Shown here piece by piece: positions 2,226 through 61,842 of a DNA stretch of 64,000 nucleotides. A program made the position numbers and the translations under genes. The stretch's first letter is position 1. Each line of letters starts with the position of its first letter. The stretch is from Octopus vulgaris (taxonomy: Eukaryota): NCBI GenBank assembly GCA_951406725.2, contig OX597819.1:107694001-107758000 (forward strand), written 5' to 3'. The notes beneath the pieces are model-generated. The model ran no database searches and was not told the DNA's origin. It saw nothing but the letters and a program-made list of their open reading frames with translations.

Positions 2226-2774
2226 CTCCTTCCATCACGTTCATCGCATTTCATCGTATGATTTGTCGATACGACTAAATATTTTCTATATGACATTTTA
2301 CAAGACATTTAGAAGTTGGATATATATAAATAAACTTGAAGTAAGGAAATTGTGCGACAAAGATGCAGACATAAAAATATAACTGACATTTATAGGAAAG
2401 TAATCGTGAATATACTTTTGGTCCATATATCTTTGATAAGTCATAATTTTTCTTCTTTCAGTTTATAGTAAAACACTTATTTTCGTCTCAGAGTTTTATA
2501 GTTTACTGCAGACCCGACTACTGCAAAAACCGAAAGCGTGCTCAATACCACAAATGCTCTATCTCCACTGCTGTGCTTGAAGTGAAGCAAAATATTAGAC
2601 CTGAGGACGAGAGATTTATTACAAGTTTTGATTAGTATCTGGTAATACAGAATGCGCTGTAATCTTCAATATTTAAATTTACAACAGAATACATATATTT
2701 GTATGACCTATGAAGTGCTTACAATATCGAATAGTCAGGTATTCTATATCTCTGCAGCTCTCTTCCCTCCCTCT

Positions 2775-2854
<80 letters not shown>

Positions 2855-3179
2855 GTGTGTATACATACCATTTAATGTACACTGTGTTAAAATAAGAGCC
2901 ACTAATGTTTTCTTGCCATTAAGACACGTGGTTAGACAGGTTTTTAGAACGTGCCTTATATCTCCAAATAATTTTTGGGTTCTGTTCTATTTGAAAATTA
3001 GACGTTACAAGTGGACAAGTTACTGGAATTAGGTTCATAGTCTTTCAGAGTAAGAACGCTTCTCTTTTCTTCAAGCATCCTAATATATCGCCAACCTTAC
3101 TACCTTTAGAGAATAATTTAACTTCATCGTTAATATCATTGTATCTATGATAACTTACATTTAGTGGAAGTGGTATCAT

Positions 3180-3520
3180 TCAGAAACTTGTTATATGGGT
3201 CATTAATACAGGTTATAGGCCTTATGCAAACGCGAAGGTAATTTTAAAGCACTTTATGCAAACCACCAGTCTTCCCAGTACATCGATAAAAGTAAACCCG
3301 CTTGGATGGCTAGTCATGTATAAGATTTGAAGACCAAGGTTTCACTACATACAATCAAGAGGAGAATTGTGGAGAAATCCATGCCATACGTAAATGAATT
3401 TAAAAAATGTAACTTATGCGTAGCTGGAAGATCACATTTTCTTTTAGGACAATGAATTCCACAGCTCTACTTAATTCCGGAACCAAAATTTTCACTGAAC
3501 GCAAACATATGTAGAATATT
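3180..3520 (+). pseudogene. Degenerate Penelope-like (Naiad-type) GIY-YIG endonuclease fragment
   Basis: Manual translation EGNFKALYANHQSS ... SHV*DLKTK ... IKRRIVEKSMPYVNEFKKCNLCVA ... LLNSGTKIFTERKH aligns with the C-terminus of ORF 9304-10494; has stops and frameshifts. Confidence 0.75.
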
Positions 3521-3980: not shown

Positions 3981-4280
3981 ATATATATATATCAACAATT
4001 GAGGGTAAAATTAATTAATTAATCAATTTCACCAAGTGTTCAGTATGTAAAAGGACCATTTAAGGCGAATTCAAAATTTTACATTATATAATTAGGGCTT
4101 AGTAAAATAAATTACTTTGCCACATACTGAACTTAGTAGAAATAGCAGCCAAAAAAAAAAAAAAAAATTTTCTTAGCATTTCTACAACTTAAAGAAAATT
4201 TCTCTCAGATAATGTTTACTCCAGATAGCCCACGAAGGTTTGGAGGTAAATACAGAAAAATATCACAAGTACATAGATCG

Positions 4281-4343
4281 TTTGAGTACGTCAACGTTTC
4301 AAGATTAGCCAAATAAAATCAGCATTTCTATCGTCAGCTCAAA
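4281..4343 (-). ncRNA. Type I hammerhead ribozyme
   Basis: UUUGAG-CUGACGA-[stem II]-GAAACGUUGACGUA-CUCAAA: 6-bp stem I, full core, GUA cleavage triplet. Confidence 0.85.
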
Positions 4344-4851
4344 ATTTCTTAATTTGGATTTGGAAACACTAAAAAGAAGGAACTTTACCTATCAGCGAAG
4401 TTATCGCTTCAGATGAACCACTCCGACTAACAGTGTAAACAAATTCAAAATGCGCAAGGCGTAAATTTCTTCAATCCGCTTCCACCCACGTGGTCTATCT
4501 AGCAAACATTATATTTTAACCGCGAGAACCGAGGCAGTATGACCGAGAGAAATGAATTATAATATCAACAATTGAGGGTAAAATTAATTAATTAATCAAT
4601 TTCACCAAGTGTTCAGTATGTAAAAGGACCATTTAAGGCGAATTCAAAATTTTACATTATATAATTAGGGCTTAGTAAAATAAATTACTTTGCCACATAC
4701 TGAACTTAGTAGAAATAGCAGCAAAAAAAAAAAAAAAAATTTCTTAGCATTTCTACAACTTAAAGAAAATTTCTCTCAGATAATGTTTACTCCAGATAGC
4801 CCACGAAGGTTTGGAGGTAAATACAGAAAAATATCACAAGTACATAGATCG

Positions 4852-4914
4852 TTTGAGTACGTCAACGTTTCAAGATTAGCCAAATAAAATCAGCATTTCT
4901 ATCGTCAGCTCAAA
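4852..4914 (-). ncRNA. Type I hammerhead ribozyme (second tandem copy)
   Basis: Identical to 4281-4343. Confidence 0.85.
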
Positions 4915-5761
4915 ATTTCTTAATTTGGATTTGGAAACACTAAAAAGAAGGAACTTTACCTATCAGCGAAGTTATCGCTTCAGATGAACCACTCCGACTA
5001 ACAGTGTCAACAAATTCAAAATGCGCAGGCGTAAATTTCTTCAATCCGCTTCCACCCACGTGGTCTATCTAGCAAACATTATATTTTAACCGCGAGAACC
5101 GATATATACACATGCATATTAGTTTGTGCGTCTGTATGTGTGTGCATATGTGTGCATGCGTGCGTGTATGTGTGAAAGAGTTGAATATAAATGAATTGTC
5201 TCCTACAAGGTTTTATCAAGCGTTAAAAGCAAAACATTATTCTTATTTATGTGATGCATAAACACACATAACAAACACAATGTTCAATCCAAAAATAGAC
5301 ATCGGCCAAGATTATACATTTCCCACAAGAGAGGAATTAGTGGAGTTAGTCCCAAAACGAAAAAATATTGAGTTTCAAATGGAAGTAAATCTCAAAAAGG
5401 GAGATGTGTAAAAAAAGAATTATTCACTTCCAAAAGAAGTCAATCTCAAAAGGGGAGATTCTGTAGTGATAGACATTAACACACCTGTGTTTAAAACATG
5501 GACTCGCTGGATTGTTATATTGTTGATGACGTTAGAGGTCGTTTTTGAATCTTGCGTTTTTGGGGGTAGAAATAAAAAAAGTACGTCTTGTGCAGACATT
5601 GGTTTTACCTCCGCTTCGTTAAATTATATATCCAAACGTGTGTGTGTGTGTGTTTTGTGTGCGTTTGTGTGTTTGTGTCTGCATTTGTCTCCCGTAACCG
5701 CTTGACAACCGGTGTTGGTGTATTTATGTCCCCGTAACGTAGCGGTTCTGCAAAAGAGAAA

Positions 5762-6769: not shown

Positions 6770-6837
<68 letters not shown>

Positions 6838-6867
6838 TCAAAATAAAAACATGATGCCAAGGATTCA

Positions 6868-6945
6868 GCGGTACATATGTTTCGGGCCTTTATTAGACGG
6901 ATTTATAACAATGCATAATGTGTGTCTATGGCCTTCTTCAGCCGC
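6868..6945 (-). ncRNA. Minimal type I hammerhead ribozyme in the 3' pLTR
   Basis: GCGG-CUGAAGA-AGGCC...GGCCC-GAAACAUAUGUA-CCGC; palindromic CAUAUG stem III as in Penelope pLTR hammerheads. Confidence 0.85.
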
Positions 6946-9303
6946 GCACAACTACTACCTCAAGGACATGTATTACATCAAAAATTCTACGTTGGGGATG
7001 CAAATCCTCTCATTCGCGTACGACATAATGCGGCAACAGCATAAAAATGAAGCGTCCATCTCGTCCTTCTCTCAATGTATAATGAGGAAGTTTGGATGTT
7101 GAGGTAATATAAATAAATGAATAGATAAATATATACATATATAAAAACTGACAGACGTGAAGGAACCTGGTAATAAGAGCAAATAGGGATAAAGATGGAG
7201 GGGCGAGAATTCAGGACGAAGGATAAAAAAATATATTAAAAATGTAGAGTATAAAAAAATTTTTTTAAATTTAAAAAATTTAAAAATTATCAGAAGTATA
7301 AAGGGTATAAGAGTGTAGGAATGTAAAAGAATATAAGGATAAGCGATATATAGTAGTTACGGACCAAACATGGTGGTCAGGAAAATGACAAATTCTGGTT
7401 GTAGAAGTCTTATGTGTCATAAATCAACCGGGGCGTCTGGGGACCTAGTGTATTGTAAATTAGAGTTGTTGAGCCGCTTATCTAGTTCTTCGTAACGTAT
7501 TAAGTGGTCATCATGTACATACGTACACGCATGGATACATACACCCATACACACGCGCACATATACGCACGCATACGCAACTACACGCATACAAGCATAC
7601 ATACGTACTCTCGTGTAAACATATACAGATATATATGGAAAAAGGCGCATGTAGTTGGGTACACGAACCGACGCGCACACATACGTACATACATATACTC
7701 ACATGCGTTCATATAGGCACACTCGCACTTACACGCATGTACAAGACGAAGTGAATCTCTATGCGTGTGGGCAGGAATATGTATACACCTGCACTCGCGT
7801 CCACCCCCACACACATGGGGGAGTAGATCCCTATGCCTATACACAAAGGTGTGCATATGCACAGACACAGGTATAACAAAAGGATCCGTTCTTGCACACG
7901 GGTAAGATACGGAGTCATAGTGGGTACATTAGGTAGACATGAATGTAAGAAACTTGCGGGCAAAAGATTTTAACAGAATATGCATATATATATACACGGA
8001 CAATATACATATACATATATATATACACACACACACATACGCATATATATATATATACGCATATATGCACATATATATATGTATACATATACACATATAC
8101 ACACATATACATACACACACATACACACACCCATACCCGCACACGCACATATATATATATGTGCATACATACACACCCACGTGTACATACATACACGCAT
8201 ATATACATACACACGGACCCACGCACACGTATCCACACGCACACACACACATCTGTGTGTCTATACGTGCGTGTGCACATACACTTACATACACATACAC
8301 AGACACACACACATATAGGTATAGATATAAGAAATTAAAAGATGTATAAAAAATGTATTAAAAAAAAATCTACAAACGCATGTAAAAAAACGGACCCGCG
8401 CACACGTATCTACACGCACATACACACACCTCTGTGTGTCTATACGTGCGTGTACACATACACTTACATACACATACACTTACATACACATACACAGACA
8501 CACACGCATATAGGTATAGATATAAGATATTAAAAGATGTATAAAAAAATGTATATAAGAAATCTACAAAAGCATGTAAAAAAATTATTAAAAAAATTAT
8601 TAAGAAAGTATAGCGGGGGGGGTACACATATAAACACAGATCTTTACTCATACATACGCATACACATATATACATATACATACATACACAGACACCCTTA
8701 TAATCATAAAGCGGATACATAGATAAGTAAATAAGGAAAAAAGTTAAAAATAGACATATATAGAGATATAAAGTGATAAAATAGAGGTAAAAATAGGAGT
8801 AAGAATAAGGGTAAGAATAAGAGTTAGAAATAAAAATAAGAAATAAAATATAAAAATTAAAATAAAGAATAAAAATAAAAATAAGAATAAAAATAAAATA
8901 AAATAAAATAGAATAAAATAAAATAAAAATGTAATCGGGTAAAGCTTAACATGAGATGAAGGTAAAAATAAAGGGTGGTTGAAAATGTAAAGTTATAGGT
9001 GTGTGTTAAAGGTGACCACGTAGGGGCGGGCGGGGGGAACTGAAAATTGGAAGGGTGGGAAGCGGGGTTTGGTGGTGTGCGCTCGACATCAGAGCTAGAA
9101 ATGGAAAAAGGTATAGATATAGGGAAACAAAAAATCTAGATAGGAAGAAGGTAGGTGTAGGAGAAGGAATATATAGGAAAAGAAATATATGGGAGACAAA
9201 ATATGTATATATAGGAAAATATATATAGGAAAACGGGATGCGCTGGAGCCGACAGGTTGCACTTGGGTGGGAGGAAATTGCATGGGGGAGTTGGTATAAT
9301 AGC

Positions 9304-10494
9304 CTAAGTTTTGTAGTATTTGAAAGTATTAATAAGTTTGTGTATACAATATGGCTTGAACTCTGACCTTTTGTTAATAAGATTGTGTTTCTCCTTGAAT
9401 TTCAAGATATTCAGGAGTTCTACACAACATAGTTGGCATCCTGCTCTATTATTTAAATAACGTGCAGCTGATCCGATGATGGACCACCTGAGTTTGAAAC
9501 CTATGCTTTTGTCTTTTAATTCCCAAATTTTCTTAGAAAGGGATGTGCTGCTAGCTTTATGTCTATGCTTAAATGAGGACCGGTGGTTGTAGTATCTAGA
9601 TTTCCAGGAGGTCGAGCAACCTATGTAGGTGAGTGTGTTAAACTGGGTACTCACCTCACATGAATAGATTACATTTTTCGCCCTACATACACCACGTAGC
9701 GGACACTCGGATGCACATATGCAGTTGCAGTGCACTGCATTTCCCGGTCGTGTGATGTTAGTCCCAGGCGGAGGTGTTGCATTAAGTGTAGGGGCACTGT
9801 TATCCTCCTGGTTGTTGATGGGTGTGATGTTGCCTCTGTTGTGTTGGCGGGTGTTATTACTAACTGTTTGGGTATTATGGTTGCCAGCCCGATTATATTG
9901 ACTACTGTCTGGATGAATGGGGTTCGATTGGTTGTTATGGCCTGCTCTTAATCTAGCTGTTCTAATGTTAATATAGTTATGCTTAGCTATGAGGCAGCTC
10001 ATGTTGGGCAGGGTAGAGTAGGAGATCCTAATGGTTTTGTCGGAGAAGATACTTCTATACTTATGGGTGGGTGGGAAGTTGTTGGAAATGATAGAGAATA
10101 TTCTCTTACATAATTTACCCCTAACTGCTATGTTGTATGGTATGTTGTACCATATATATTTGCGTAATCTACTATTTCCGCCTCTATTTATCCTAATGTG
10201 ATCTATGTTGCTCTCGTCGGAAGGGTTATCATTGTGTACTATTCTATTGGTTCGCTCTTTTCCTATACGTTGCTTAGAAGTTAAATTAGAATTAGCGTTA
10301 GCTTGGGTTGAATACGGAGTTCGTTTATAAGTGGGAGTTTTACAGCCGACGGACGATCGTGGGGGGTCTACATAGGATATTCTCTGGGTATACCCAGCAC
10401 TAGAGAGAGCCTGGTTGTAGTGTTGTGCGTGATTATTGAATATATCTCTGTTAGAGGATAGCTTAGTGAGTCTGTCTGAGATGGCTTGGACCAT
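9304..10494 (-). CDS. Penelope-like protein: RT thumb remnant, linker and Cys-rich GIY-YIG endonuclease (396 aa, no RT core)
   Basis: ISDRLTKLSSNRDIF...YNQALSSAGY; IWYNIPY; CNCICASECPLRGVC; VIY...YIG; RYYNH; LSKKIWELK; CQLC; INKRSE...CIH. Confidence 0.85.
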   Translation of the reverse strand: MVQAISDRLTKLSSNRDIFNNHAQHYNQALSSAGYTQRISYVDPPRSSVGCKTPTYKRTPYSTQANANSNLTSKQRIGKERTNRIVHNDNPSDESNIDHIRINRGGNSRLRKYIWYNIPYNIAVRGKLCKRIFSIISNNFPPTHKYRSIFSDKTIRISYSTLPNMSCLIAKHNYINIRTARLRAGHNNQSNPIHPDSSQYNRAGNHNTQTVSNNTRQHNRGNITPINNQEDNSAPTLNATPPPGTNITRPGNAVHCNCICASECPLRGVCRAKNVIYSCEVSTQFNTLTYIGCSTSWKSRYYNHRSSFKHRHKASSTSLSKKIWELKDKSIGFKLRWSIIGSAARYLNNRAGCQLCCVELLNILKFKEKHNLINKRSEFKPYCIHKLINTFKYYKT

Positions 10495-10703
10495 CTGTCA
10501 GTTTTTATATATGTATATATTTATCTATTCATTTATTTATATTACCTCGACATCCAAACTTCCTCATTATACATTGAGAGAAGGACGAGATGGTCGCTTC
10601 ATTTTTATGCTGTTGCCGCATTATGTCGTACGCGAATGAGAGGATTTGCATCCCCAACGTAGAATTTTTGATGTAATACATGTCCTTGAGGTAGTAGTTG
10701 TGC

Positions 10704-10781
10704 GCGGCTGAAGAAGGCCATAGACACACATTATGCATTGTTATAAATCCGTCTAATAAAGGCCCAAAACATATGTACCGC
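10704..10781 (+). ncRNA. Hammerhead in the inverted pLTR, G12A mutant
   Basis: Same as 6868-6945 but GAAA is AAAA at 10766. Confidence 0.7.
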
Positions 10782-10888
10782 TGAATCCTTGGCATCATGT
10801 TTTTATTTTGATTAATTTACTCCACCACCTACACCACCAAACGGTATATACAGGTGCTTACAATTATCAAGTACTCAACCTGAATTTC

Positions 10889-28538: not shown

Positions 28539-29144
28539 ACACACACATACATACAAACATACACACATACATACAGACATATATATATATATTTATTTAC
28601 TTTTATGTATAATTTTACCCTCACGGGCTATCCTTTACTGGAAAGCAATACTCTAGTATTGCATTACTATTTTCATTGAAACTTCTTCACTGTTCTCGTT
28701 CTGTCAACGTTTTGGCGTTCAGTCGAGTGTATTGGTATGGATGTGGCAACATTTGAAATATTGTCGAGGTATATGTGGCTGATGAAGATAAATCAAATAT
28801 ATGTGGGCAGACATATTTTAAAGAATCTGAAACCGGTACCACATTATCCCTTTCTAGGTATTTCATTTTTCAGATGTTCTCCCTAGAGGTAAAACAATTT
28901 TTTTCATGTTTGTTGCACACACGCACTTTTACTAGTACATACGCAGTGAAGCTATACATTAGCGTCGTATTTATTACGTTCGCTATTTTCCAGTAAATTA
29001 TTTACTTTTATATATATATATATATATATATATGGTGCTCGTGCATGTGCTTCTTGCATTTATTTACTTTTATATATAATATTATATATATATCCGTGCC
29101 ATTTGATTTACTTTATATATATAATATATATATATATATATCTT

Positions 29145-29598: not shown

Positions 29599-31787
29599 AA
29601 CTGGAAAACTTTTTCTTTGTCCAAGACTGGACAGAATATGGTGAAGGATTCGTTTCTTCAATCTTGGAAAGAGAAGGATAGGAGAATAAAACAGAAATTA
29701 GGAAAGAGTATCATTAATAGTGAAAAAGGAATAGAATGTCGGGGAAGATTATTGATCACGGTATGGCTGGGAGAGATTGGGAGAGGGGTTCTCAGTAAAT
29801 AACTTTTCGACAACAATATACGTAATCATTCACCTTTTGATATAAGCATACATAAAAATAGTTGAAATTAGCCGGATATTCTTATATACAAGCACACACA
29901 CACACGCACATGCATACACACACACACATATATGTTTGTATGTTTGTATGTATATGTACGTATGTGTGTATGTATGTATCCATGCACAAAATAATTCATA
30001 AGTATAGATTATATGTATGTCTGTGTATATACACACATTAGTATATATGTGTGTGTGTGTGTGTGTGTGTACGTATGTATGTATATGTATATACATATAT
30101 ATATATACTTACATAAGTATAGATTATATATATGTCTGTGTATATACACACATTAGTATATATATATGTGTGTGTGTGTGTATGTATGTATGTATATGTA
30201 TATACATATATACTTACATAAGTATATATGCATGTGTTTATATAATATATATTTGTATACACATATATGCCGTTGTTATTGTTGTTTAGGGGATGATAGT
30301 GTAGGTTTCTGAATACGCGCGTGCTCATGTATGTGCATGTACGGGCTGGTGGTTTAATTTCAATCATTCCCGTATTTATGCGAACACGTTTGTCTGTATG
30401 TCTATATCCATATAGGAACGTGTAAATTGTTATTGACTTAAGTTGTTTACGAACCCACTGACCTCTAACGGAGTTTCCCACCTACACCTATCATAAAACG
30501 ATCAATAATTCCCCTTCTCCCTCCTCATTCTTATTATAATTCTAAACCTTCAACTTTCTCCTTTTCCCATTACTTCTCTCCACCACTTCCGCAGAAACTA
30601 GTTCTAATGCTTCACTATTTGCACACTTCCATGAACTAAAGACGTAAAAACAACTTTAAATTTTCTGTATGTTTTTTCATCTCTTTCTCCGTAAAAAGTC
30701 TCCGCCCGAAAGATCAGAAAGCTTTTCTCTTAAAGGCATACAAACTTTAGAAAACAAACTTTATATGTTACTTTTAGAAACTTTTTTTGTGGAGACTCAT
30801 CTCGCAGTTAGTTACTTCGGATTCTATAATATTTTCCATGTAGGTTCTTGATAAATTTCTTCCAAATAGTAATGTTTATATCCAACTTAACATGGATGTC
30901 TTGCTGGAACACCGAATTAGCCTTGTAAGATATTTTCATATATACGCTTGATACATAAAATGCACACGCACATGGATCGCAGCAGACGAGAGTCGTCCGT
31001 CATGGGCACCGGAACTTCAATATTATGTGATTTCGTTCTATTGGAAATCATCAGTTCGAAGCTCAGTGCGAGGCGTCACTGCATGCCAATCAAACTTCGT
31101 TGCTAATATATATAAAATATAAGCATCTTTTCAGATACTGATGTCGCAAATAACTAGCAGGCCTTTTAAAAATTCATTATTACTGACAGAAGTAGTATTA
31201 ATATCAAAACATAATCTTTATATCCAACTTAACATGAATGTGTTAATGTGTTGTTGGAGCACGGAATAATACTCTCAAATTTGTTTCGAAAACTGTATTT
31301 TTTATATAGTTTTGTTCGCTGATGACGAAAATCGCAGTTTTTTTTTAAAAATTAAAAATATTTTTTTTTTACAATCATTTAAAGTTATATAATTTTAGCT
31401 TAACAAACCCTGTGTTGCCGCGCATACCGGAAGTTTCTGTTCTTATGGAAACAGCACAACTACACCATAACGTCTAAAACAAACAAAAAGGATGACACAT
31501 TGTGTCACAACACCGTTTATTTCTGCACTTGAGGCAGACCAAAGTAGTTTCTACTTGTTGAATTATCAATAACATTTAAATTAAAGTCAATCTGCACGGA
31601 TGTAATCTTTTATCGAAATCACGACTCATTTAGTGCTTATTGAGCCTACAGATCGATATTATAAGTATTTGCTCTTTCCTTATGGTAATGTGTATGTATG
31701 TGTAAGTGTGTCTGTCTGTCTGTCTGTGTCTGTATGTGTGTGCGTGCACGTGGTGTGTGTATTGTCTTTTATATGTGTATATAACTG

Positions 31788-33029: not shown

Positions 33030-34293
33030 GTATAGATGTAAGTACATATACGTATCTATATATGCATATATATATATATATTATTTATATGATTATACAT
33101 ATGTGTATATGTATTTGTGGGCGTGTGTGCGTGTTCGTGCGTGTATGTGTGTGTGCGTGTGTGTTTATATAGTAGCGAGTTTTAATTGGCATGGGGTGAC
33201 CGGACTCCTACTGATGACAGTAGAATGAAATCACGTGATATAACAGTTCTGGCGCCTATGACGGACGATTCTTTATGTTACAATTTATTCGCATGCTTTT
33301 TATGCACCAAGCGCCTTTGTGAGAGGATCTATCAAAGTGATAACGCAGTATTCAATTTTCTAACAAAACATTCATATTAATTTGTATATGATTATTACTT
33401 TTTGGTATTAGTACTGTTTCCATATATAAATGATTTGTGTGTATGTGTGTGTATGGATACACACAAAACTGCTTCGTAACCTAAAGCGTCCCTACTTTTT
33501 ATTTTCCAATTTATGCCGTCTGTTTGAGATAATTTGCCTATGTTTACTAGTGTCTAAGTAACAATCTCGAAAACCTAGACTTAAACTAACACGCGCTTTT
33601 GTAATATAATCTCTATGCAGAGCAAAAACGATCATCTGAATATATTTTGCTTCGTACAGCTATAAAGTGTCAGAGTGTGTACGTAACACAAGCTGTGAAG
33701 TTCAGCATGTAGTATATACCACTTTTATTATGCAGTTCCAGCGATGAAGTTTTGTTTATTTGTTAGAAACCAGTGTTTTTCTTAAAGAACAATTCACATA
33801 ATTCAAGAAGGATAACACACATTTATAATTTCACTGAACACTTATATAACTGTTTCTTATAGCATTTGTGTTTCCGTTAAAGGTGTGCATGTAACAGTAT
33901 AAGCCAAAACTAAACGATTGTTTGCTATATCAGCGGACAAAGAAATAGAGTTATCAAAATGCATTTATTTTCAACTAGCATTAAAGACCCGTCGTTGCCG
34001 GGTCATGGTGCTAGTGCATGTATATATGTGTATATATATGTGTACATATAACATGTACATCTATATATATACATCTACACGTAAAATGCAAAATACAAAG
34101 TTATATCTTGATATCGCTAGTGATAACAATACTCAAAATATATAACAGACTGGAATTGTTAGCTCTTCTTTTTTCTCTACATTAAACTTAGATAAACTTA
34201 GATATGTTTCGACCAAAGATTGGTCCAGGCCATGTCTAACTTAATAGCACCACCTGATAGGATTATTCGAATCCTGTTTAAGTCAAGTTTTGT

Positions 34294-36198
34294 TTAAGTC
34301 AAGTTTTGTTCAAGTAGTGAGTTCTTGTTGGGTGAGTTGTATCCAATTATGGGTGGCTTATCTGGTATTCTTTGAAGGAATCTATCCAGACTCTGTTTAA
34401 AGTTGATGGGATCCTTTTCCTCTTTGATCTCCCTCGGGACAATGTTAAATAGAGCAGGGCCTGTTGAGGAAAAGAAATTATGTTGCAGTGTACATGTATA
34501 TTGTGATCTTGAATTGGGCAGGGGACGTATAGCCCGTGGTCCAAGTCTTGGATGAACCTTGAAGCTAATGTTTAGGTCGTTTGGGCAAAGTTGGCGGTAT
34601 ATTTTCCACATCGTACAAATGATGTACCGCTCACGGCGACGCTGGAGGGAGTAAAGTTTCAAGGCTTTAAGGCGATCCCAATAATCGAGAGCAGCCATGC
34701 CTTCAATTTGTTTAGTGAGTGCCCTCTGGGGTGACTCAATTCTGGAGATGTTTTGTCTTGTGTGAGGAGACCACAGTGGGCAGCAGTATTCAAGGTGTGG
34801 CCGTACAAAGGAGGAAAAAAGTGGTATGATGACACCTTGTTCTCTGGACCGGAAAGTTCTTAAGATCCAGGAACTCATCCTACGAGCTATATCGACCTTC
34901 TTGTTGATGTGTGCACTCCAACTGAGATCGTCATCAACAATTACACCCACGTCTCTGATATTGTTAGAGGCTGTGAGCGGTTCCCCTGAAGGAAGAGAGT
35001 ATGGTTGTTTTAGTGAGGAATTTCTTCCAAAATGCATCAGCTCAAATTTTCCCTCATTCAGTTGCATTTTGTTTCTGTCTGCCCATTGACTCACAGCATA
35101 TAGATCAGACTGGAGTTGAGTTCGGTCTGCTTCTTCATTGACGATTTGCTGGAGCTTAGTGTCATCAGCAAATATTTTCACTTTGCAGTAATGTACGACA
35201 CTGGAAAGGTCGTTTACGTAAATTATAAAGAGTAGCGGACCCAAAACAGTTCCCTGGGGAACACCGCTGGTGACTTTTGCTGGGTTTGAGTGGACTCCAT
35301 CAACTACAACATATTGTGTTCTATTCGCCAGGAAATACTTAATCCAGTGTAGAACTTTTCCACGGATTCCAACATTTGCCAATTTTGAGAGTAGGATGTT
35401 ATGGTCTACCCTGTCGAACGCTTTACTGAAGTCAAGATATATGACCTCAGAGTTCGAACCTGTTCCCAAGGCTTTGAGTACATCTTCAATGTGGTGTAAG
35501 AGCTGTGTTAGACAGTCCCTGCCACAGCGAAAGCCATGCTGATTTGCATTTAGGAGTTTGTGGGTCTCCAGGAAGTCAGCTATCCTTGATCTTAACACTC
35601 TTTCAAACACTTTAATGATGTGGGAGGTGAGTGAGATTGGGCGATAGTTGACTGCGAGGGATCTGTTTCCCTGTTTGAAAACCGGAATGACCGACTGGGA
35701 TAGAAACTGTTTCGGTATATAACCTGCGTCTAACGAATTTCTCCAGAGGTTGGTCAGAGGGACTGCAAGTCGGTATCTACATTCCTTCAGGAGACTAGCG
35801 GGAAATCTATCAGGGCCTACAGCAGAGTAATGTTTGACCTTATTTATTGCTGCTACGATGTCGGTGGCAGTGAAGGTTATGTCTGCGATTTTGTGTTGGG
35901 AGTCAACTTCGTTCGTTTCCCTTACGTCAATATCAGTGGGAACACTAAAGACAGAGCAGTATTGTTTCTGCAGTATTTCTGCCATTTCTTTAGCATCGTG
36001 TTGGGGAATGCCGTTATCATCAATCAATGGCCCAATGGGTGAGACAGTGGTTCTATGCTTATTTGCATAAGAATAGAACACCTTTGGGTTCTGTTTGATG
36101 TTTTTGATTACCCATTGTTCCTCCACAGCTCTTTGATTTTCAATGGAGGTTTTCATGTTGGTCTGCAGATGAAGTTTGTCCAGCTCTAGTCTTTTCAT
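34294..36198 (-). CDS. LINE ORF2 reverse transcriptase region (634 aa open)
   Basis: NYRPISLTS, QHGFR, YLDFSKAFDRV, GVPQGTVLGPLLF, FADD, RPHLEYCCPLWSP, LYSLQRRRER. Confidence 0.92.
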   Translation of the reverse strand: MKRLELDKLHLQTNMKTSIENQRAVEEQWVIKNIKQNPKVFYSYANKHRTTVSPIGPLIDDNGIPQHDAKEMAEILQKQYCSVFSVPTDIDVRETNEVDSQHKIADITFTATDIVAAINKVKHYSAVGPDRFPASLLKECRYRLAVPLTNLWRNSLDAGYIPKQFLSQSVIPVFKQGNRSLAVNYRPISLTSHIIKVFERVLRSRIADFLETHKLLNANQHGFRCGRDCLTQLLHHIEDVLKALGTGSNSEVIYLDFSKAFDRVDHNILLSKLANVGIRGKVLHWIKYFLANRTQYVVVDGVHSNPAKVTSGVPQGTVLGPLLFIIYVNDLSSVVHYCKVKIFADDTKLQQIVNEEADRTQLQSDLYAVSQWADRNKMQLNEGKFELMHFGRNSSLKQPYSLPSGEPLTASNNIRDVGVIVDDDLSWSAHINKKVDIARRMSSWILRTFRSREQGVIIPLFSSFVRPHLEYCCPLWSPHTRQNISRIESPQRALTKQIEGMAALDYWDRLKALKLYSLQRRRERYIICTMWKIYRQLCPNDLNISFKVHPRLGPRAIRPLPNSRSQYTCTLQHNFFSSTGPALFNIVPREIKEEKDPINFKQSLDRFLQRIPDKPPIIGYNSPNKNSLLEQNLT

Positions 36199-36239
36199 TG
36201 TTGTTGAATGTGGATGTTGTGCGTGGGAATATCTTAATT

Positions 36240-37215
36240 GGTTGATTTTTTTGTTGAGTCTTTTGATGCGCCTGATGAGTGTTTTTTTCTTTTTAGGGAG
36301 CCGGTTTCTGTTTGTGTTAGTAGATTTCTTGGGAGCGTGTTTAGAGCATGTATAGGTGACAATGTTTTCAAAGTGCTGCCACGCGGTCTCAATATGAGAG
36401 GAATTGAGAGTAAAAGACCAGTCGATGGAAGACAGATCCTTTCTGATTGTTCCCTAGTCCGCTTTGTGGAAGTTTATGTTGTCAAATGGGTGCCATGGAG
36501 TGGGATTGGTTGGTTTGGTTTTTATATGTCGGGAATTAAGATTGCAGAGTACCATGTCGTGGTTTGAGAGGAGAGTTTTTTCGTCTGAAATACTGTGAAC
36601 ATAGCTAGAGTGATTGGTCAATACCAGATCCAAGATCGTTTTATTCTGTCTCGTTGGTTCAAGCACTAGCTGAGTTAGGAAATACTCATCCATCAGATTA
36701 AAGAGCAGTTCTGCTGCTGCTCTATCTGATGTAGAGCACTTGCCTAACTTCAGAGTATTTGTGGGCCAGTTCACATGAGGGAGGTTAAAATCACCCATCA
36801 CTAGTATGTTTCCGGAGTGGTACTTCCGAAGGAAGGACTTGACTTTGCTAAGGCACTCTTCAAAGTACTTTAGAGGTGCCTGGGGAGGCCTGTAAAGACC
36901 AACAATGTTATGTCCTTGGCTTTGTTGTATAGTGATACCGATTCACAGTAGCCATTGGAAAATATGTCCTTGGCATCAAGTGAAAAGGAGTCATGGATAA
37001 AGATGGCTGTCCCTCCCTTATTTCGGTCTGTGCGATCCGCACGAACAATGGTGAAATATTTTATTTTCACCTCTGCGTCCATATGGGTGTTGTTCAGGTG
37101 AGTCTCGGTAAGGATAAAGAAAGGGAAGCAGTGTGCCATTTCGGCAAGCCAACTCTCTATATATGGGATCTTCCATTTTTGGGCAATAATTGATGGGTTG
37201 ATGCCACGTACATCT
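36240..37215 (-). pseudogene. LINE APE endonuclease domain, frameshifted
   Basis: LTETHL, RADR..KGG, GDFN, PTR..ILDLVLTN, SNHD, split across frames. Confidence 0.85.
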
Positions 37216-38144
37216 AACAGGAATGTCGAGGTAAGGGAAGTTGGTAATGGGTGAGTGGTCCTTGTGATTTGCATAGATGGTTGGTGATAGCTCGCTGGAT
37301 CTCCTGACTTAGGTCGGCCTTCATATTTTCTAGGTATGTCAGTAAAAAAGAGTTACTTGTTTGGTTTGCCACTTGGTCAGAGGATACATATTTCATGTTG
37401 GCGTTATTTGGTGTTTTTTCATGGTTCTGTCTACGTTGTTTGATTGTAGGAGGGGAAACATGGTTGTATTTTGTTCTTGTTGTCCTAGATTTCCTCTGTT
37501 CCTGTTTATATTTATTCTGTGATCGTTTTGTGCCCTTCAGATGGTGGTGGTTGCATTCTGGGTTCAGGCACATCCTTTGTGAGACAGAAGTTTGGCACAG
37601 TTTAGGATGGAATAAGGTGCATAGACAATAGTCTTTTCTTTAATTTAATTTTTTATTATCCATCTGGACTATTTCATTTCTGCACGCTAATTTTATTTTT
37701 AATTTATTCCCATTCATGTGAAACCACTTATTCAAGTTCAAATCATTGATGCAATTTTATACCAATTGCTATTTTTACTTATATTATACTTTAGTTTGAT
37801 TTTAATTATTACTTACTACATATAATTCAATTGTTATTATTATTTTTATTGTTAAAGTGAAAGCATCTGATATAAAATAGAGAAATATTTTTGTTTCACT
37901 TTTAACACGTAATACTGAAATAGTGGAGAAGATATGATATTGCTATGGGCTCGCTCTAGGCAAGAAGTTGAACCTTTTTTCCCATGAAACTACATGGACC
38001 CTAAGTAAGGCATGTGTAAAATTTGAATGAAATTGGTTGTGTAGTTCTCAAGTTTTAGGGAAACACACAGACAGACAGACAGACACACACACATTCTCAT
38101 TTTATATATATAAAGATATCTTACTGATATGTAAGTGAACAGCT

Positions 38145-39879: not shown

Positions 39880-42260
39880 CTACCAGTGAGACAATCTTTC
39901 AATGATAAAATGGATCATTTATCCTTTGTGCAAGGGAAATCTGAACAGTATGTAATCGACTCAAAGGAAGTTAGAGCAATAAACTTATCTCATATTTTCC
40001 ATGTGGTGACTTGAAAGTATATTCTAAGTATAAGAATGGCATGAAGAAGAATCTTGATATGGCTACAGCTTACTCAAAGGATATATGAATGGAATTTAGT
40101 CAAGATAAATATTCCTTCATAATTGTAAAACCATGGAAACTACAAGCCAGTTTAGCAATACCACAAATAATGGGTGACTGTTTCTCAGGCATCAAACGAG
40201 GAATGCTTTTGGTACCTATGTATTGATGGAAATATATCAGATGGTAAGTTTCGTACAAGGGAATAAGTAACCAAGAACATAATACTTTGATTAAAATATA
40301 TTATCATCTCTAAAGACTATAAAAATTGTGGCTCATAATGTGTTTTCTGTACCAATTATCACACTAACATTTCGATGACATGGATGCTACCTGAGATGTG
40401 AAAACCTGAAAACTATTAACATCTCCCAAAATTTCTACATGAAAAATGATATTGACTATCTCAACTTAAAATGAAAGTAAGGATGCAGAAGCTTCACATT
40501 ACACGAAACACCATTTGAATGCTGCATTTTATCTTATCCATACGATCTACAGACACACAGCATCGAAGTGTATCCAAAGATCATGTTTATGTCATGAAAG
40601 TTAGAAAGGAGATCCGCGAAAAGTATTCCTTGACAGATGACCATGAATACATACCCGGGGAAGTTGCACAACTCTATAGCAGCAAATATAAGGCTTTCTG
40701 CTTATAAAATTATCTGTCAAACTAACCCTATCGGATTATATAGCATTACGTTTCTAAGTGAACTTTTTGGCTCTTGGTTATGTAACTACGTTTACTGGCT
40801 CCAGTCTTAATTATCTTACCTTCATAAACTATGAGGCTGGGTAAAAAGTAAGCACCGTTTTGAACCATGAAGAAATTTTGCAGAGTTTAGGATTTTTTAA
40901 AACATTTTTTGCAATTTTCTGATAATACAGTCATAGACTTGCCCAAATACATCAATAAATTAACATTGATATTTTTTCATCGTTGTTACAATCATCTGAA
41001 ATGGAATTGTCAATGCGCGATTTTCGAGAAAATTTTGCTATTCAACTTCAAAAAAGAACGTAAAGCAGCTGAAACTGCTTGCGATATCTACGAAACGTTT
41101 GTTGTGGAAATGACCAATCAGTGGACAACTCCAAAATGATTTAAACGATTTTGCAGTAGAGACCTGAGCCTTGAAGATCGTGAGCGTAGTGGACGTCTAT
41201 CTGTCATCGATAATGGTCAATTAAAGACCGTCATTGAGAAGAATCCACGTAAAACCACTCAAGAACTGGCAAAAGAACTTCAAGTTAGCCGGAAAACTGC
41301 CTGCAACCATTTGCATGCGATCGGAAAATCAAAAAGCTCGACAAATGGGTACCACATATTTTAATGAAAATTAGAAAATGCGCAGATATGAAATATGCTC
41401 GTCGCTTCTTCTCCGTAACCAGACTGATCCGTTTCTCGACAGTAATGTAACTTGCGATGAAAAGTGGATTCTGTACAATAATAAAAAAAAAAGTTCTTCG
41501 CAGTGGTGGGACCAAAATTAAGCATCGGAAATCTTCATTAAATCCGAGTTCTTCAAAGGGAAGGTTATGATGACTGTTTGGTGGCGTACAGCTGGATTCA
41601 TCCACTATAACTTCTTAAAACCCGCAAAAACCATTACTGCAGAAGCATATTGTCATGGAATTGCCAAATTGAACGAAAAACTGCTATTCCTTCGTCAATA
41701 CTGGTCAACAGACAATGCTCGACCACAAGTTTCACTAATGACGCCCTAGAAGTCGAAGCTACGAAGTTCTTTCCAAAACGGCTTATTCCCCAGACCTTTC
41801 TCCTAGCCACAACCACTTTTTCAGGTAACTTGATTGTTTCCAGTGAGAGAAGGAGTCAAAAACCAAACCGATGCTGAATGTGCGTTCAAAGAGTTCATCA
41901 GCTCCAGAACTGTAGATTTTTATGTTACCAGAATAAACAAACTTTAATTCATTGGCAAAAATGTGTTGATTATAATGCTACTTACTTTGATGAATGAAAT
42001 TTCTTCATTGTTAAAATATATTGTGATGAATTTCATGTTTCAAAACGTTGCTTACTTTTTACTCAGCCTGATAGAAAAGATACAGCTAATTAAGAAATTA
42101 CAATTACAAGCTATTTTTGGAACTGAAAACATATGTAAAACATTCAAGAAGTTTAACCTGTAAGAAGTAAATATGATTATTACAGGTATATAGGTATTTT
42201 GAAGGTATCTTATGTGCTATCCAAGCACAGAAGATTGCTACATTATGACTAATAAATTAA
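39880..42260 (+). mobile_element. Degenerate R4/Dong-like LINE RT region interrupted by a mariner
   Basis: LSHIFHV/DLKVY, MEFSQDK, AHNVFSVPIITLTF before the mariner; EGILCAIQAQKIAT after it. Confidence 0.55.
40832..42071 (+). mobile_element. mariner transposon with both TIRs, transposase pseudogene
   Basis: TIRs TGAGGCTGGGTAAAAAGTAAGCACCGTTTTGAA / TTCAAAACGTTGCTTACTTTTTACTCAGCCTGA, TA flanks; TCDEKWILY, KVMMTVWW, DNARP, YSPDL. Confidence 0.92.
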
Positions 42261-45145: not shown

Positions 45146-45279
45146 CATATATATACACACATACATATGCATACATATTTCCATATATACACATATATAC
45201 ATACACAGACATGTAGAAGAACGCATATACGCACGTACAAGTATGTATATATATATATATATATTTATTATATAGAAGG

Positions 45280-45330
45280 AGCTTCTACAGGACTAGAACT
45301 GTTTCATTCAAGAGAAATCTTCAGGAAGCT
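45280..45330 (-). ncRNA. Type I hammerhead ribozyme (left arm)
   Basis: Reverse complement of 45488-45538. Confidence 0.8.
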
Positions 45331-45487
45331 AGTTAACAAGAATTGTGTTGGCATTTATACATTTAGGCAGGTTTATAGGGGTGGTGGTGGGGGACTTTTT
45401 GGGGGTAGGCATAGCGCAAAAAGTCCCCCACCACCACCCCTATAAACCTGCCTAAATGTATAAATGCCAACACAATTCTTGTTAACT

Positions 45488-45538
45488 AGCTTCCTGAAGA
45501 TTTCTCTTGAATGAAACAGTTCTAGTCCTGTAGAAGCT
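45488..45538 (+). ncRNA. Type I hammerhead ribozyme (right arm)
   Basis: AGCUUC-CUGAAGA-UUUCUCUUGAAU-GAAACAG(UUCUAGUC)CUGUA-GAAGCU. Confidence 0.8.
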
Positions 45539-45644
45539 CCTTCTATATAATAAATTAATTTTACTCTGCTATGTATTGAGTACCTTATTTACTGTGGTTA
45601 ACCCCGAATCAACCCGGGACCTACATATATATATATATATATAC

Positions 45645-49189: not shown

Positions 49190-49310
<121 letters not shown>

Positions 49311-51019
49311 AGAGAGAAACAGCTATTTAGTTATTCCATCAATAGTGAAAAGATATTATCTATAACACCCACATAGAAATTAATTAAATATTTTATAATT
49401 ATTATTCTAAAAATCTCATAACAAATCAAACATTAAAAAATCGTTGATACATAATACAGGGAAAAGAATTTCGGCACTTTCTTCTAATTTTGAGATTTTC
49501 CAAAAACATGCACCTTATTATAATGAAGCCTTGAGGGAGGCAGGATATAATAAAAGTATTAAATTCTTTAATAATTGTAGATTTAATAATAATATAAAAA
49601 AATAATAATATAAATGATTCTAATATTATTTATAATAATAAACCAAATATTAAGAATTATGCTAAGTTTTGTTCAGTTAATTATGGTTTTAATAATAGGT
49701 ATTATGATAATACAAAAAATAAATATAATAAAAGAGTAAAAGATAATAAATTTAATGTGGTTAATGATAATAAGAAATATAATATAATAAATAAAAGTAA
49801 TGTTAACAATAAGTATAAAATTTGGTTAATTATTCCTTGTGGGGCTCAGGTTAAAACAAACATTATTAAAGAGATATTATAACTAATTGAATTATTCATT
49901 GTACATAATAAAAAATATAATAATAGTTTTTCTAGTAATAATTTTGGAGTTGGATATTCTACTACTAATAATGTTGATAACATTATTTCATCTTTTGATA
50001 GTTTTAATTTCATCTTTTAATAGCTTTTAATAGTAAAGATAAGACTAAATGTAAATTTAAAAATAAATGTAACTTGGTTGATGTAGTACATAAATGTGTA
50101 GTGACTCTGATAGATGATAATTTTAATAGGAATAGTTATAATATAAATGCGATTTACGTGGGGTCGACATCTAATAAAATTAAATTAAGGGCTAAGGGTG
50201 GCCCAACACATGCACTCATTTAAGAATAAAATATTGATTAATCCTACTGGTCTTAGCAAATATATATGGGAATTAAAATCTAAAGGAATTATGTATAATT
50301 TAAAAGGGAAATAGTTTTTAAAGCTAAATCTTATCGAATAGGTAATAATTTTTGTTTACAATGTACAAATAAATTTATGGAGATATTACAATCTAAAAAT
50401 AAGTAATTAATTCACAAGATGAGAGGAAATTAGATGTAGACATAGGTTGAATTATTTATATAATAAGTTTAGATAATTTGTGAATATATATAACCTGGTT
50501 TATGTTATTAATTTATGTAGTTATATTATGTAGTATTGTAATGAGTATAAATTAGTAGGTTATGTAGTGTATGAACATAAATAGAATCAGTTTAAACCAA
50601 GTCATTAATAAAAGTAATTGAAGGATATATATTAATTTATGAACATTTAATTAATTTTATATTTTTACATATAATGTCGTAGTTTTAAATTATTGAGAAT
50701 TTAAAATTTTTCCCCTTAAGTTGTATATCACGTCACGTTTTTTAATTTTTATTTTTTATCGTTAAATACATATATCTATTTCTTTATTTATTGTATATTT
50801 ATTGTTTACGTCATGATTAACGAGATAGGTTTTTTTTTACAGCGGTAGAATGTAAGTTTAAATTTGAAATTTCTTTTAACTGGTTTTCATCAATAAGATA
50901 AGTCATGTTTTTGCTTTACATTAATATTGTTAAATTTTATTAAATTATTTACTGCTAATATACATATATTTATATATTTATTGTTTTATTATAATATCTA
51001 AATTTATTTATGTTATTTT

Positions 51020-51115
51020 TTGACCTGAATAGTGGCTAAATATTTTTAAATTGAATTAATATTAAATCTTAATATTATCGACTTATATATTTAGTCATGA
51101 AACGCGCGTAGTCAA
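51020..51115 (+). ncRNA. Type I hammerhead in pLTR, G8U mutant
   Basis: UUGAC-CUGAAUA-GUGGCUAAAUAU...AUAUUUAGUCAU-GAAACGCGCGUA-GUCAA. Confidence 0.7.
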
Positions 51116-51146
51116 TTTAATGTTTGATTTGTTATGAGATTTTAGT

Positions 51147-51324
51147 AGGCATAGGAATGGCTGTGTAGTAAGTAGCTTGCTTACCAACCACATTGTTCAT
51201 GGCTCAGTCCCATTGCGAGGCACCTTGGGCAAGTGTCTTCTACTATAGCCTCGGGCCAACCAAAGCCTTGTGAGTGGATTTGGTAGACGGAAACTCAAAG
51301 AAGCATGTCATATATATGTGTGTG

Positions 51325-51385
<61 letters not shown>

Positions 51386-51600
51386 TTGCGTGTCTGTGTT
51401 TGTCCCCCAACACCGCTTGACAACCGATGATAATGTGTTTACGTCCCTGTAACTTAGCGGTTCGGTAAAAGAGACCGATAGAATAAGTACTAGGCTAACA
51501 AAGAATAAGTCCTAGGGTCGATTTGCTCGACTAAAGGCGGTGCTCCAGCATGGCCACAGTCAAATGACTGAAACAAGTAAAAGAATGAAAGAGTAAAAGT
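51147..51600 (+). mobile_element. SINE family A inserted in the pLTR
   Basis: Full head-to-tail copy interrupting the inverted-repeat arm. Confidence 0.9.
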
Positions 51601-51706
51601 GTTTTTTAGAATAATAATTATATGATATTTAATTAATTTCTATGTGGTTATTATAGATAATATCTTTTCACTATTGATGGAATAACTAAATATCGGTTTG
51701 TCTCTA

Positions 51707-51782
<76 letters not shown>

Positions 51783-55548: not shown

Positions 55549-55925
55549 ATATTTGGAGAGATTTTTTCTCAAGGCGTTAAGATTGAGAAAAGAACATTTT
55601 TAGAAAGTCGAAAGACATTAACCTTTGGGGAGAGATTTCACAAAATAAATTAAGAGAACGACCTTCTCCGGAAGGCAAAAGAAGAATATTTCATAAGGTT
55701 TCTGAATCCGAAACTAAACTGTAAATAGTCAACAACAATTATATTGAAAGCATCTTCCACTATATATAACACGTGATTGAAAACGTTAAGAACTGAAAGC
55801 GCTTGCACATCTACAAAAGCAAAGCCCACGCACATTTTGTGAAATCTCTTCCCAAAGGTTAGTGTCTTTCGACTTTCTAAAACGGTTCTTTTCTCAATCT
55901 TTGAAAATAATTTTCTCTCGAAACA
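55549..55925. repeat. Inverted-repeat element, probable pLTR relic
   Basis: ~55550-55646 inverted to ~55834-55924; internal GAAACTA...TAGTC half-hammerhead. Confidence 0.65.
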
Positions 55926-55951
55926 TACATATGTATATGTATACGTATATG

Positions 55952-56006
<55 letters not shown>

Positions 56007-56043
56007 CGTATACATATACATATATATATATACATATACATGC

Positions 56044-56074
<31 letters not shown>

Positions 56075-56703
56075 ATAATTGATATAGGATAAAAAAATTT
56101 TCGGGAAAAAATTTTATCAATGGCCAGCATATCAAAAAATGCCTTTAGAGGTAAAATTTATACATAATTTACAAGATAAGGGCAGAACAAAAATTCTAAT
56201 GCCAGATACGCCGAAACAAAAAATTGTCGATAATCATTAAATTTATGCGTCTCGAAACAAACCGATAGAAATCTCTAAAAAAATTCGTTATTACCGTATT
56301 GGTCCAATTTCGGGGTTAATTCACAAGAAATGTTCCCCTCTTCAGCGGCACATACGCGAGATATAAATGAAATACTTATTCATACCCATGGAAGAAGCAA
56401 GCACCAAGTCCCGAGCAGACTTAAGTACCCCAAATATATCCAAAATAGAAAAATCTTCGGCGCACCTCGAGACACGTGTGATTCGAACTAGAAACTTTCA
56501 CAGAGTGATAGAATCCGTAAGTGAACACTATTCTATTTATAATTGATATAGGATAAACATTTTTTCGGGACGGTAATAACGAATTTTTTAGAGATTTCTA
56601 TCGGTTTGTTTCGAGACGCATAAATTTAATGGTTATCGACATTTTTTTTGTTTCGACGTATCTGGCATTAGAATTTTTCTTCTGCCCTTATCTTGTAAAT
56701 TAT
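56075..56703 (-). mobile_element. Non-coding hammerhead element: 464-bp unit, 32-bp terminal direct repeat and inverted arm
   Basis: ATAATTGATATAGGATAAA at 56075 and 56539; 56164-56297 inverted to 56570-56703. Confidence 0.85.
56292..56350 (-). ncRNA. Type I hammerhead ribozyme
   Basis: UGCCG-CUGAAGA-GGGG(loop)CCCC-GAAAUUGGACCAAUA-CGGUA. Confidence 0.88.
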
Positions 56704-56712
56704 TTATATATA

Positions 56713-57225
56713 TCTATATATATAAAACTGTAGTTGTGTGAGTGTCTGTCCCCTTCGATTTAGATTCCTAACTACTCCCACATTTTGCGGTGCAGTTTAA
56801 CCAAATTCGGGTATCTTATAGTCGTGATTCATATCGAGCCTGTCTGAGTATTAGCGCGCGTCTACGATGAGTCTACGATTTTAAAAATAATTTAACATCA
56901 TTTTTTATTCCATTTTAATGCATAATTTTTCGTGTGTCGATGGCGGCGGAGTTGGCGTCCATGGTCACACCTGCACCTGTTTGCTTCTCCCCCTTCTTCC
57001 CTCCCTCGTGAAGCTGTGGGGAAGGGAGTGTAAGGAAATCAACGTCGTAAAGCGTTGTCAAGGAGACCAGCGTTCTTTTAGAACAACGACTTCATGGCTT
57101 GAATTCGCCAAAACAGAAATGGCTAAGAAAGCCCGAATTGGCATCTATAAGGGAAGTAACTCTCTAAAAATGCTTATATAGTTATTTCCCTTACAAACCC
57201 GAGCAACGCCGGGCGATACTGCTAG
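56713..57225 (+). mobile_element. Non-autonomous Helitron
   Basis: 5' TCTATATATATAAAA, subterminal hairpin CCCGAGCAACGCCGGG, 3' CTAG, inserted between A and T. Confidence 0.85.
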
Positions 57226-59788: not shown

Positions 59789-60002
59789 AGCCGGCGAACT
59801 GGCAGAATCCTTAGTATGCCGGGCAAAATCTTTGAGCGTTATTTCGCCTGTCTGAAATTTATCAACGGCCAGCATATCAACTTTGCCTTTCATCCTTTCG
59901 GGGTCGATAAATTAAGTACCAGTAAAACACACTGGGATCGATGTAATCGACTGGTCCCCTTCACCGAAATTTCAGGCCTTGTGCCTATAGTAGAAAGGAT
60001 TT
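59789..60002 (+). mobile_element. SINE family B variant
   Basis: CTTTGCCTTTCATCCTTTCGGGGTCGATAAATTAAGTACCAG. Confidence 0.8.
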
Positions 60003-61746: not shown

Positions 61747-61835
61747 GTACTAGCTACAGAAGTACATATTCTAAAATTGGAAGATTAGCATGGCTCCTGC
61801 GCAAGGATGACACGCAAATTCGTGAATCATTCTAT
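61747..61835 (+). pseudogene. U6: U6 snRNA pseudogene lacking the ACAGAGA box
   Basis: CTAAAATTGGAA^GATTAGCATGGCTCCTGCGCAAGGATGACACGCAAATTCGTGAA matches U6 with a ~13-nt deletion. Confidence 0.9.
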
Positions 61836-61842
61836 CTAAGAT

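Follow-up and report, generated by a model that had tools for sequence, protein, structure and literature searches.

Non-LTR retrozymes of metazoans (PMC7229834; bioRxiv 10.64898/2026.07.22.740005) are non-coding tandem units of a few hundred nucleotides with low GC content, each carrying one type I hammerhead ribozyme; they occur in high copy number, as monomers and partial copies, and are likely to be moved by the proteins of Penelope-like elements (PLEs). The element described here, found at positions 56075-56703 of a 64,000-nt stretch of Octopus vulgaris DNA (the window), shares these features. In the accessible parts of the retrozyme papers (Cervera and de la Pena 2020; Li et al. 2026), circular templates are proposed and insertion ends are not mapped to the ribozyme cut. 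When retrozyme dimers of Xenopus were assayed in vitro, 8 of 9 did not cleave (bioRxiv 10.64898/2026.07.22.740005).

PLEs of the Hydra clade (Craig et al. 2021, PMC8557442) resemble the focal element in that they insert into (TA)n, carry a hammerhead close to the 3' end and a 5'-truncated copy, inverted, at the 5' end, and have a short terminal extension, but the focal element has no ORF, and the 3' end of its inverted arm is internal (+132, counted from the cut), away from the 3' end of the family. The role of the hammerhead in PLEs is termed unclear in the same paper. The tail-plus-inverted-arm layout is already known from published descriptions of PLEs as well as non-LTR retrozymes, and the novelty of this locus may lie in the position of its junction. 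In the literature covered on PLEs, retrozymes, twin priming, and terminons, which included few subscription papers, no insertion ends mapped to a hammerhead cut were found.

As interpreted below, the focal locus also resembles the PAc Poseidon system studied in vitro (Frangieh et al. 2024, PMC11167929) in the internal initiation of reverse transcription, AT-rich targets, and cleavage of both strands. PAc has in addition two start sites defining the tail, comparable with the two 3' end sites seen in several families of the second genome analysed below. [quoted passage not shown] The closest precedent for a ribozyme-defined template is R2, in which an HDV-like ribozyme sets the 5' end of the RNA (PMC6895275); a ribozyme-set 5' end is the rule for full-length copies of R2, whereas the focal type is a minority outcome.

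Table 1. Features of the focal element and of its hammerhead ribozyme (positions in the window)
Feature	Position	Strand	Remarks
Candidate 15-bp target-site duplication, left copy	56060..56074	+	Terminus of (TA)n tract
Sense copy	56075..56570	-	496 nt: a 464-nt unit and 32 nt belonging to the next unit upstream
32-nt terminal redundancy, 3' copy	56075..56106	-	Putative first priming end
Type I hammerhead motif	56292..56350	-	Structure scan
Hammerhead stem I	56350-56346/56296-56292	-	5 bp
Hammerhead core CUGAAGA	56345-56339	-	
Hammerhead stem II	56338-56335/56315-56312	-	4 bp
Hammerhead GAAA	56311-56308	-	
Hammerhead stem III	56307-56299	-	Near-palindromic loop, 3-4 bp
Hammerhead UA^	56298-56297	-	H17 = 56297
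Predicted cleavage bond	56296..56297	-	After A56297, by hammerhead numbering; first base past the cut, 56296
32-nt terminal redundancy, 5' copy	56539..56570	-	End of upstream tandem unit
Head-to-head inversion junction	56570..56571		Single shared base, A56570
Inverted arm	56571..56703	+	RNA copy, first post-cut base to ~+132
Candidate target-site duplication, right copy	56702..56716	+	

The features of the focal element are given in Table 1. The RNA 3' end of the sense copy adjoins (TA)n, and other copies of the family have loose ends entering (TA)n near 56075-56094. The two copies of the terminal redundancy are 91% identical. Head-to-tail joints with a period of ~464 were found in three of the sequencing runs searched for the family (X1, X2, and X3), and the redundancy thus represents read-through into the upstream unit, for which no special mechanism is required. 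An LTR-like R region was considered for this repeat and dropped, because tandem read-through suffices; when the redundancy is compared with the 30-40 nt tail of PLEs, tandem read-through again accounts for it, and a second RT start could not be discerned in the contigs. Within the unit, a 26-nt segment (56110-56135) matches another abundant repeat of the window (59855-59880) at 92% and may add to the contig depth peak observed at 56109-56142.

The plus strand from 56570 onwards is the reverse complement of 56297-56156, with 95.5% identity over 132 nt, and the arm extends to +140 if the microhomology with the flank is counted. Because A56570 fits both sides of the junction, the arm starts at offset 0 or -1 from the predicted cut. 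The two copies of the candidate target-site duplication are identical at 14 of 15 positions, and no other such 15-mer is present within 55950-56074. The first 10 bases of the right copy match the RNA at the outer end of the arm at 8 positions and would plausibly have served as an internal primer site. When positions on the tandem RNA are numbered with the cut of unit n-1 as origin, the arm corresponds to +0 to ~+132 and the sense copy begins at +190, so that the two segments are consecutive and non-overlapping, with 58 nt missing between them; the sense copy continues past a ribozyme that was left uncut and extends to the 3' end. The initial annotation had predicted cleavage after AUA, an inverted arm beginning exactly there and copying the 3' cleavage product, and a 32-nt terminal redundancy with a period of 464, and all three observations hold on re-examination.

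The layout is what twin priming on a single RNA starting at the cut would be expected to leave. The features of a twin-primed inversion are present: a head-to-head inversion, a target duplication, microhomology at the outer primer, and a small gap in the template. Twin priming of L1, which Ostertag and Kazazian are said to have described in 2001, reportedly produces a head-to-head 5' inversion by internal priming of the second strand and leaves a small segment gap; the focal element shares with it the inversion, the presumed internal priming, and the small gap. L1 is not known to carry a hammerhead.

The focal motif contains the CUGANGA, GAAA, and UH elements of a type I hammerhead together with helices I-III, and is open at helix I. 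In the family contigs, the majority base at 56351 is A, which would lengthen stem I, and the ribozyme core was unchanged among the 40 of 74 family differences that were listed. At the Rfam gathering score, no hammerhead was detected anywhere in the window, where U6 was the only hit; minimal hammerhead motifs of the PLE type have been detected by descriptors (PMC4209133). For the focal monomer, the hammerhead fold was calculated at -8.4 kcal/mol, compared with -14.4 kcal/mol for the minimum-energy fold (z -0.63). Such a weak monomer fold would be expected of a ribozyme with a short helix III that is thought to act as a dimer, and the self-duplex of the helix III strand, calculated at -8.9 kcal/mol, fits a dimer-type ribozyme (cf. 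PMC4209133).

Contigs of the focal family were collected from four sequencing runs with three organism labels, belonging to three studies. The family is present in high copy number (2033-3394 matching contigs per run), and these contigs gave no direct observation of a dimer in which both ribozymes are intact. Only one copy is present in the window, and comparison of the focal unit with the rest of the window gave no match to the pLTR of an autonomous PLE. No ORF combining an RT with a C-terminal GIY-YIG domain was found in 56075-56716, and no ORF of at least 120 aa in 56145-56703; a 164-aa frame (55650-56144) crosses the microsatellite. An exact-pattern scan of metagenome contigs for the family returned 0 matches. 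The retrozyme features found are high-copy, non-coding tandem units in the ~150-1000 nt range with a type I hammerhead, and the PLE features are an inverted 5'-truncated copy beside the 5' end and a (TA)n or AT-rich target. The focal element is therefore likely, as judged from its sequence features, to be a tandem hammerhead-bearing repeat moving as a non-autonomous PLE (non-LTR retrozyme); the element itself is ordinary, a previously undescribed member of an established class.

The window is AT-rich animal DNA rich in microsatellites, and other ribozyme-bearing arms are present in it. The arm of the element at 49305 starts at +5 from the cut, and the ribozyme lies within the arms at 6832/10494 (start at -284) and 45263 (start at -116), so that two of the four ribozyme-bearing arms in the window cross the cut; these three cases had been recorded in the same way, the last two as counter-examples, in the initial annotation. 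An endonuclease remnant at 9304-10497 is of the Hydra type, with a CxCx5C linker and no CCHH. It has 4337 relatives, the longer of which contain RWK- and DKT-like motifs, as given for the Hydra clade (PMC8557442). Searches with the remnant found nothing in Pfam, one match in a word-indexed homolog search, and no relative in a scan of viral contigs. We infer that an endonuclease of this type mobilises the focal family.

Several further elements were identified in the window. Two 5'-truncated insertions of Hydra-type PLEs with inverted arms (6832-10817 and 49305-51712) have sense copies truncated at nearly the same codon, before a shared 'LSSN', which may mark a favoured stop or priming site. 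A retrozyme-like, near-complete tandem dimer (3990-5102) has a period of 573 nt and 99% identity between its units, each of which carries an intact minus-strand hammerhead (cores at 4908 and 4337), and provides a ready dimer for a cleavage assay. At 45263-45555, two head-to-head arms, identical over 139 nt, separated by a 15-nt spacer and each containing a hammerhead, both end at -116 and probably represent a young insertion. At 51025-51110, there is a hammerhead whose core is a variant (CUGAAUA) and whose stem II is very long, with a SINE-like repeat inserted just downstream (~51146-51602). Other hammerhead-related sequences are a solo fragment flanked by (TA)n tracts (28779-28839) and a pair of hammerhead-like copies (30862-31112 and 33166-33405), which are old and diverged (67%) and lie in inverted orientation. 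Beside the focal element lies a small inverted element (55579-55901) with 68-nt arms of 94% identity, in which the scan found no hammerhead. The U6 snRNA copy (61747-61841) has a 12-nt deletion and is directly followed, from ~61838, by a dispersed repeat, possibly as a U6-retroelement chimera or a nested insertion. The minus strand of the window also carries a LINE-type reading frame for an endonuclease and RT (34294-37352), which is largely intact and which we take to be CR1/L2-like, and the window further contains a decayed, presumably mariner-like DNA transposon with 43-nt inverted ends (40829-42074).

Opposite-strand joints of the focal family were then compared with the cut. Seven were found and four were listed, with ends at +134/-154, +117/-187, +69/-177, and +61/-87; none of these four lies at or near the cut. 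This rules out the cleaved end as the dominant route, and 0 of 4 is the expected outcome if the route operates at a rate of 5-10%.

An alignment of Hydra-type proteins yielded 77 metagenome loci and 14 genome loci for an independent test. The 77 short-read metagenome loci were mostly broken at repeats, gave no usable junction, and were left outside the counts. The test was carried out in an unrelated genome, G001. This record of 12 Mb is catalogued with the genomes of prokaryotes and includes hundreds of short contigs with PLEs and microsatellites; the PLEs and (TA)n tracts suggest that these contigs are animal DNA. From 96 regions (1.02 Mb), 83 hammerheads in 30 groups were obtained, and 21 family searches of the whole record then brought the total to 158 non-redundant loci. 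The part analysed as sequence thus amounts to about 1.2 of the 12 Mb, and the rest was covered through the 21 family searches, with 40 candidates scored for large families. The contigs were initially picked for carrying a ribozyme, the cut sites are predicted, and the numbers are small. Under the null model, 5' ends were uniformly distributed.

In G001, 196 copies extend to +20. The ribozyme is spanned by 135 of these, and contig ends interrupt another 4; the remaining 57 have their truncation point in -40..+45, which for 52 lies within -40..+40. Curation of these 52 automatic rows removed 12, moved one, and added three, to give 43 ends. The rows dropped were four at -36/-35, which represent one boundary in one family (the limit of the reference); two ends of the palindrome in L191, which are ambiguous (-2 to ~+9); two at +11 with common upstream sequence, representing a subfamily; three duplicate breaks (+14, +17, and +17); and one internal deletion (+36). 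The row of L151 was shifted from +36 to +5, ends were added at +15, +16, and +32, and a composite reference yielding false rows at +7 and +28 was excluded. At one locus from the protein alignment (L088), which lies in G001, the inverted arm of a small insertion was placed at +4 of its neighbour, but the neighbour carries a 4-nt duplication, as seen from other copies, and the true arm start is 0.

A modest excess of 5' ends was observed at the cut. Four of the 43 curated ends lie at exactly 0 (0.53 expected in -40..+40, p=0.002), and the interval 0..+3 contains 8 of them (p=0.001). If the discovery case (L202) is omitted, the counts are 3/42 at 0 (p=0.015) and 7/42 at 0..+3 (p=0.004), the latter becoming 6/41 (p=0.015) when the two ends of L140 are counted once; in the uncurated rows, 4/52 lie at 0 (p=0.004), or 3/51 without the discovery case (p=0.025). 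Wider or symmetric windows are weak when the discovery case is left out (-1..0, p=0.085; -3..+3, p=0.067). Since some position attains 4/43 in 15% of random sets, the result depends on the site having been named beforehand. The exact-0 cases (L140, L186, L202, and L318) represent four families; three of the four are head-to-head inversions, both arms of L140 lie at the cut (0 and +2), and none of the four has bases in common with the pre-cut sequence. Inversions ending at the cut number ~3 of 34 (29 automatic pairs and 5 read by eye), the other ~31 ending elsewhere. Two other causes of the exact hits were rejected: insertion adjacent to TA, because two of the four have no TA beside the cut, and subfamily divergence, because the upstream sequence is the inverted partner or unrelated.

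Several other features of G001 were recorded. In one PLE-like family (about a dozen hits), each of the four copies inspected (L235, L236, L239, and L240) has a hammerhead core broken by changes of C3 and G8; the family multiplied without a working ribozyme and provides a natural negative control. In several families (e.g. L113, L182, L197, and L202), copies end at either of two sites, which are separated by ~50-60 nt and a short hairpin, and the nearer site is often the one used by inverted arms; these two sites match the two RT start sites of PAc (PMC11167929), but the tail is longer in G001. Two tiny hairpin insertions with junctions just past the cut were also found, one on an 8-nt palindrome at +1..+8 (L191:12876-12942) and one with ends at +5 and +8 (L151:1628-1767).

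The main rival to a cleaved template is coincidence, i.e. an ordinary 5'-truncated inverted PLE copy with its end on the cut by chance, which we consider rather unlikely. Inverted 5'-truncated copies are standard for PLEs (PMC8557442; PMC3846280), the 5' ends in G001 are spread across the whole range, the listed joints of the focal family all lie away from the cut, and the focal match was spotted post hoc, so that the window alone proves little. Against these points stand the chance of a match within a 2-nt window of a 464-nt unit, which is ~0.4% for a given end and ~2.6% for one of four arms over a 300-nt range, and the excess at a pre-named position in an independent genome. Ends could also cluster near the cut without cleavage if the RT paused or dropped off at stem I of a folded, uncut hammerhead. 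Stalling of this kind may account for the +3 to +8 class, which coincides with the 3' strand of stem I or falls immediately beyond it and includes the 49305 arm and G001 ends at +3, +3, +5, +8, and +8, with stems of 4-6 bp; it would be expected where the RT meets the helix (+4 to +8), whereas the sharpest excess is at exactly 0, where the helix has already been copied, and the focal monomer has a more stable fold than the hammerhead. As an account of the focal junction, stalling is improbable.

Very improbable, in our estimate, is an origin of the arm by snap-back of the cDNA, from an antisense template, or from a 464-nt circle, the arm being copied from that cDNA or from a second RNA. Self-priming has been proposed for palindromic PLE junctions (PMC3846280) and circular retrozyme RNAs as RT templates (PMC7229834), palindromic junctions are present in G001 (L191 and L121), L140 requires the same 5' region to have been copied twice, and the focal junction can alternatively be parsed as a 3-nt match 6 nt before the cut with a 6-nt loss. 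Direct snap-back, however, would have had to rely on a single paired nucleotide at the junction, a circular template would not end at the cut, and the outer end of the arm meets the duplicated flank with an 8/10 match, as target priming predicts; a second RNA, if cleaved, would still back the claim of a cleaved template. The start of the arm at 0/-1 with only 1 nt of microhomology likewise argues for a template that ended at the cut.

In the reading that we lean towards, a multimeric RNA that had been cleaved in part was the template for twin priming, and the inverted arm formed when the second cDNA ran off at the 5' end made by the ribozyme. The tandem array would have been transcribed and cleaved by the upstream hammerhead alone, giving an RNA of ~690 nt with its 5' end at the cut of unit n-1, in which the ribozyme of unit n stayed uncut. 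Staggered nicks in (TA)n would then have been introduced by an endonuclease of a PLE, most likely from the Hydra clade, which targets (TA)n and is represented in the window. The first cDNA, primed at the 3' end (56075), would have passed the uncut ribozyme and stopped 32 nt into unit n-1, a layout that explains the terminal redundancy. The other target end would have annealed by AT-rich microhomology ~58 nt further upstream and primed a cDNA of 133 nt that reached the physical 5' end of the RNA, i.e. the cut, after which the two cDNA ends would have been joined head-to-head at the single shared base observed. The whole process would amount to twin priming of the L1 type on a ribozyme-trimmed RNA.

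The proposal in the initial annotation that a ribozyme-cleaved RNA served as RT template thus stands in part. The excess of 5' ends at the cut in G001, which provides modest independent support, and an arm geometry that fits run-off speak for it, but most copies and arms read through the cut, as does the focal sense copy itself, and the enrichment of junctions at the cut that the annotation suggested looking for was seen in G001 and not among the listed joints of the focal family. The evidence against a required role of cleavage is strong, because insertion of PAc is normal in ribozyme mutants and reads ending at the cut were absent (PMC11167929), and because the broken-core family has spread. 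Compared with PAc, the focal and G001 junctions point to a low-frequency use of cleaved RNA in vivo. It is likely, from these junctions, that self-cut RNA is sometimes copied into DNA, as a minority route.

As a broader and more tentative proposal, which we stop short of favouring, hammerhead cleavage may set the RNA 5' end for ~5-10% of inversions in PLE and retrozyme insertions across animals. Ends at the cut can be counted cheaply on any long-read assembly rich in such elements, and a pile-up there would be evidence for ribozyme activity in vivo on RNA that later undergoes reverse transcription, and would favour linear, partly cleaved multimers over circles for inverted insertions. If the proposal is true, the inverted arm of PLEs would reflect twin priming on such multimers, genomes would hold a base-precise fossil record of ribozyme cleavage in vivo, and DNA alone could reveal, through junction pile-ups, which ribozymes are active and where they cut.
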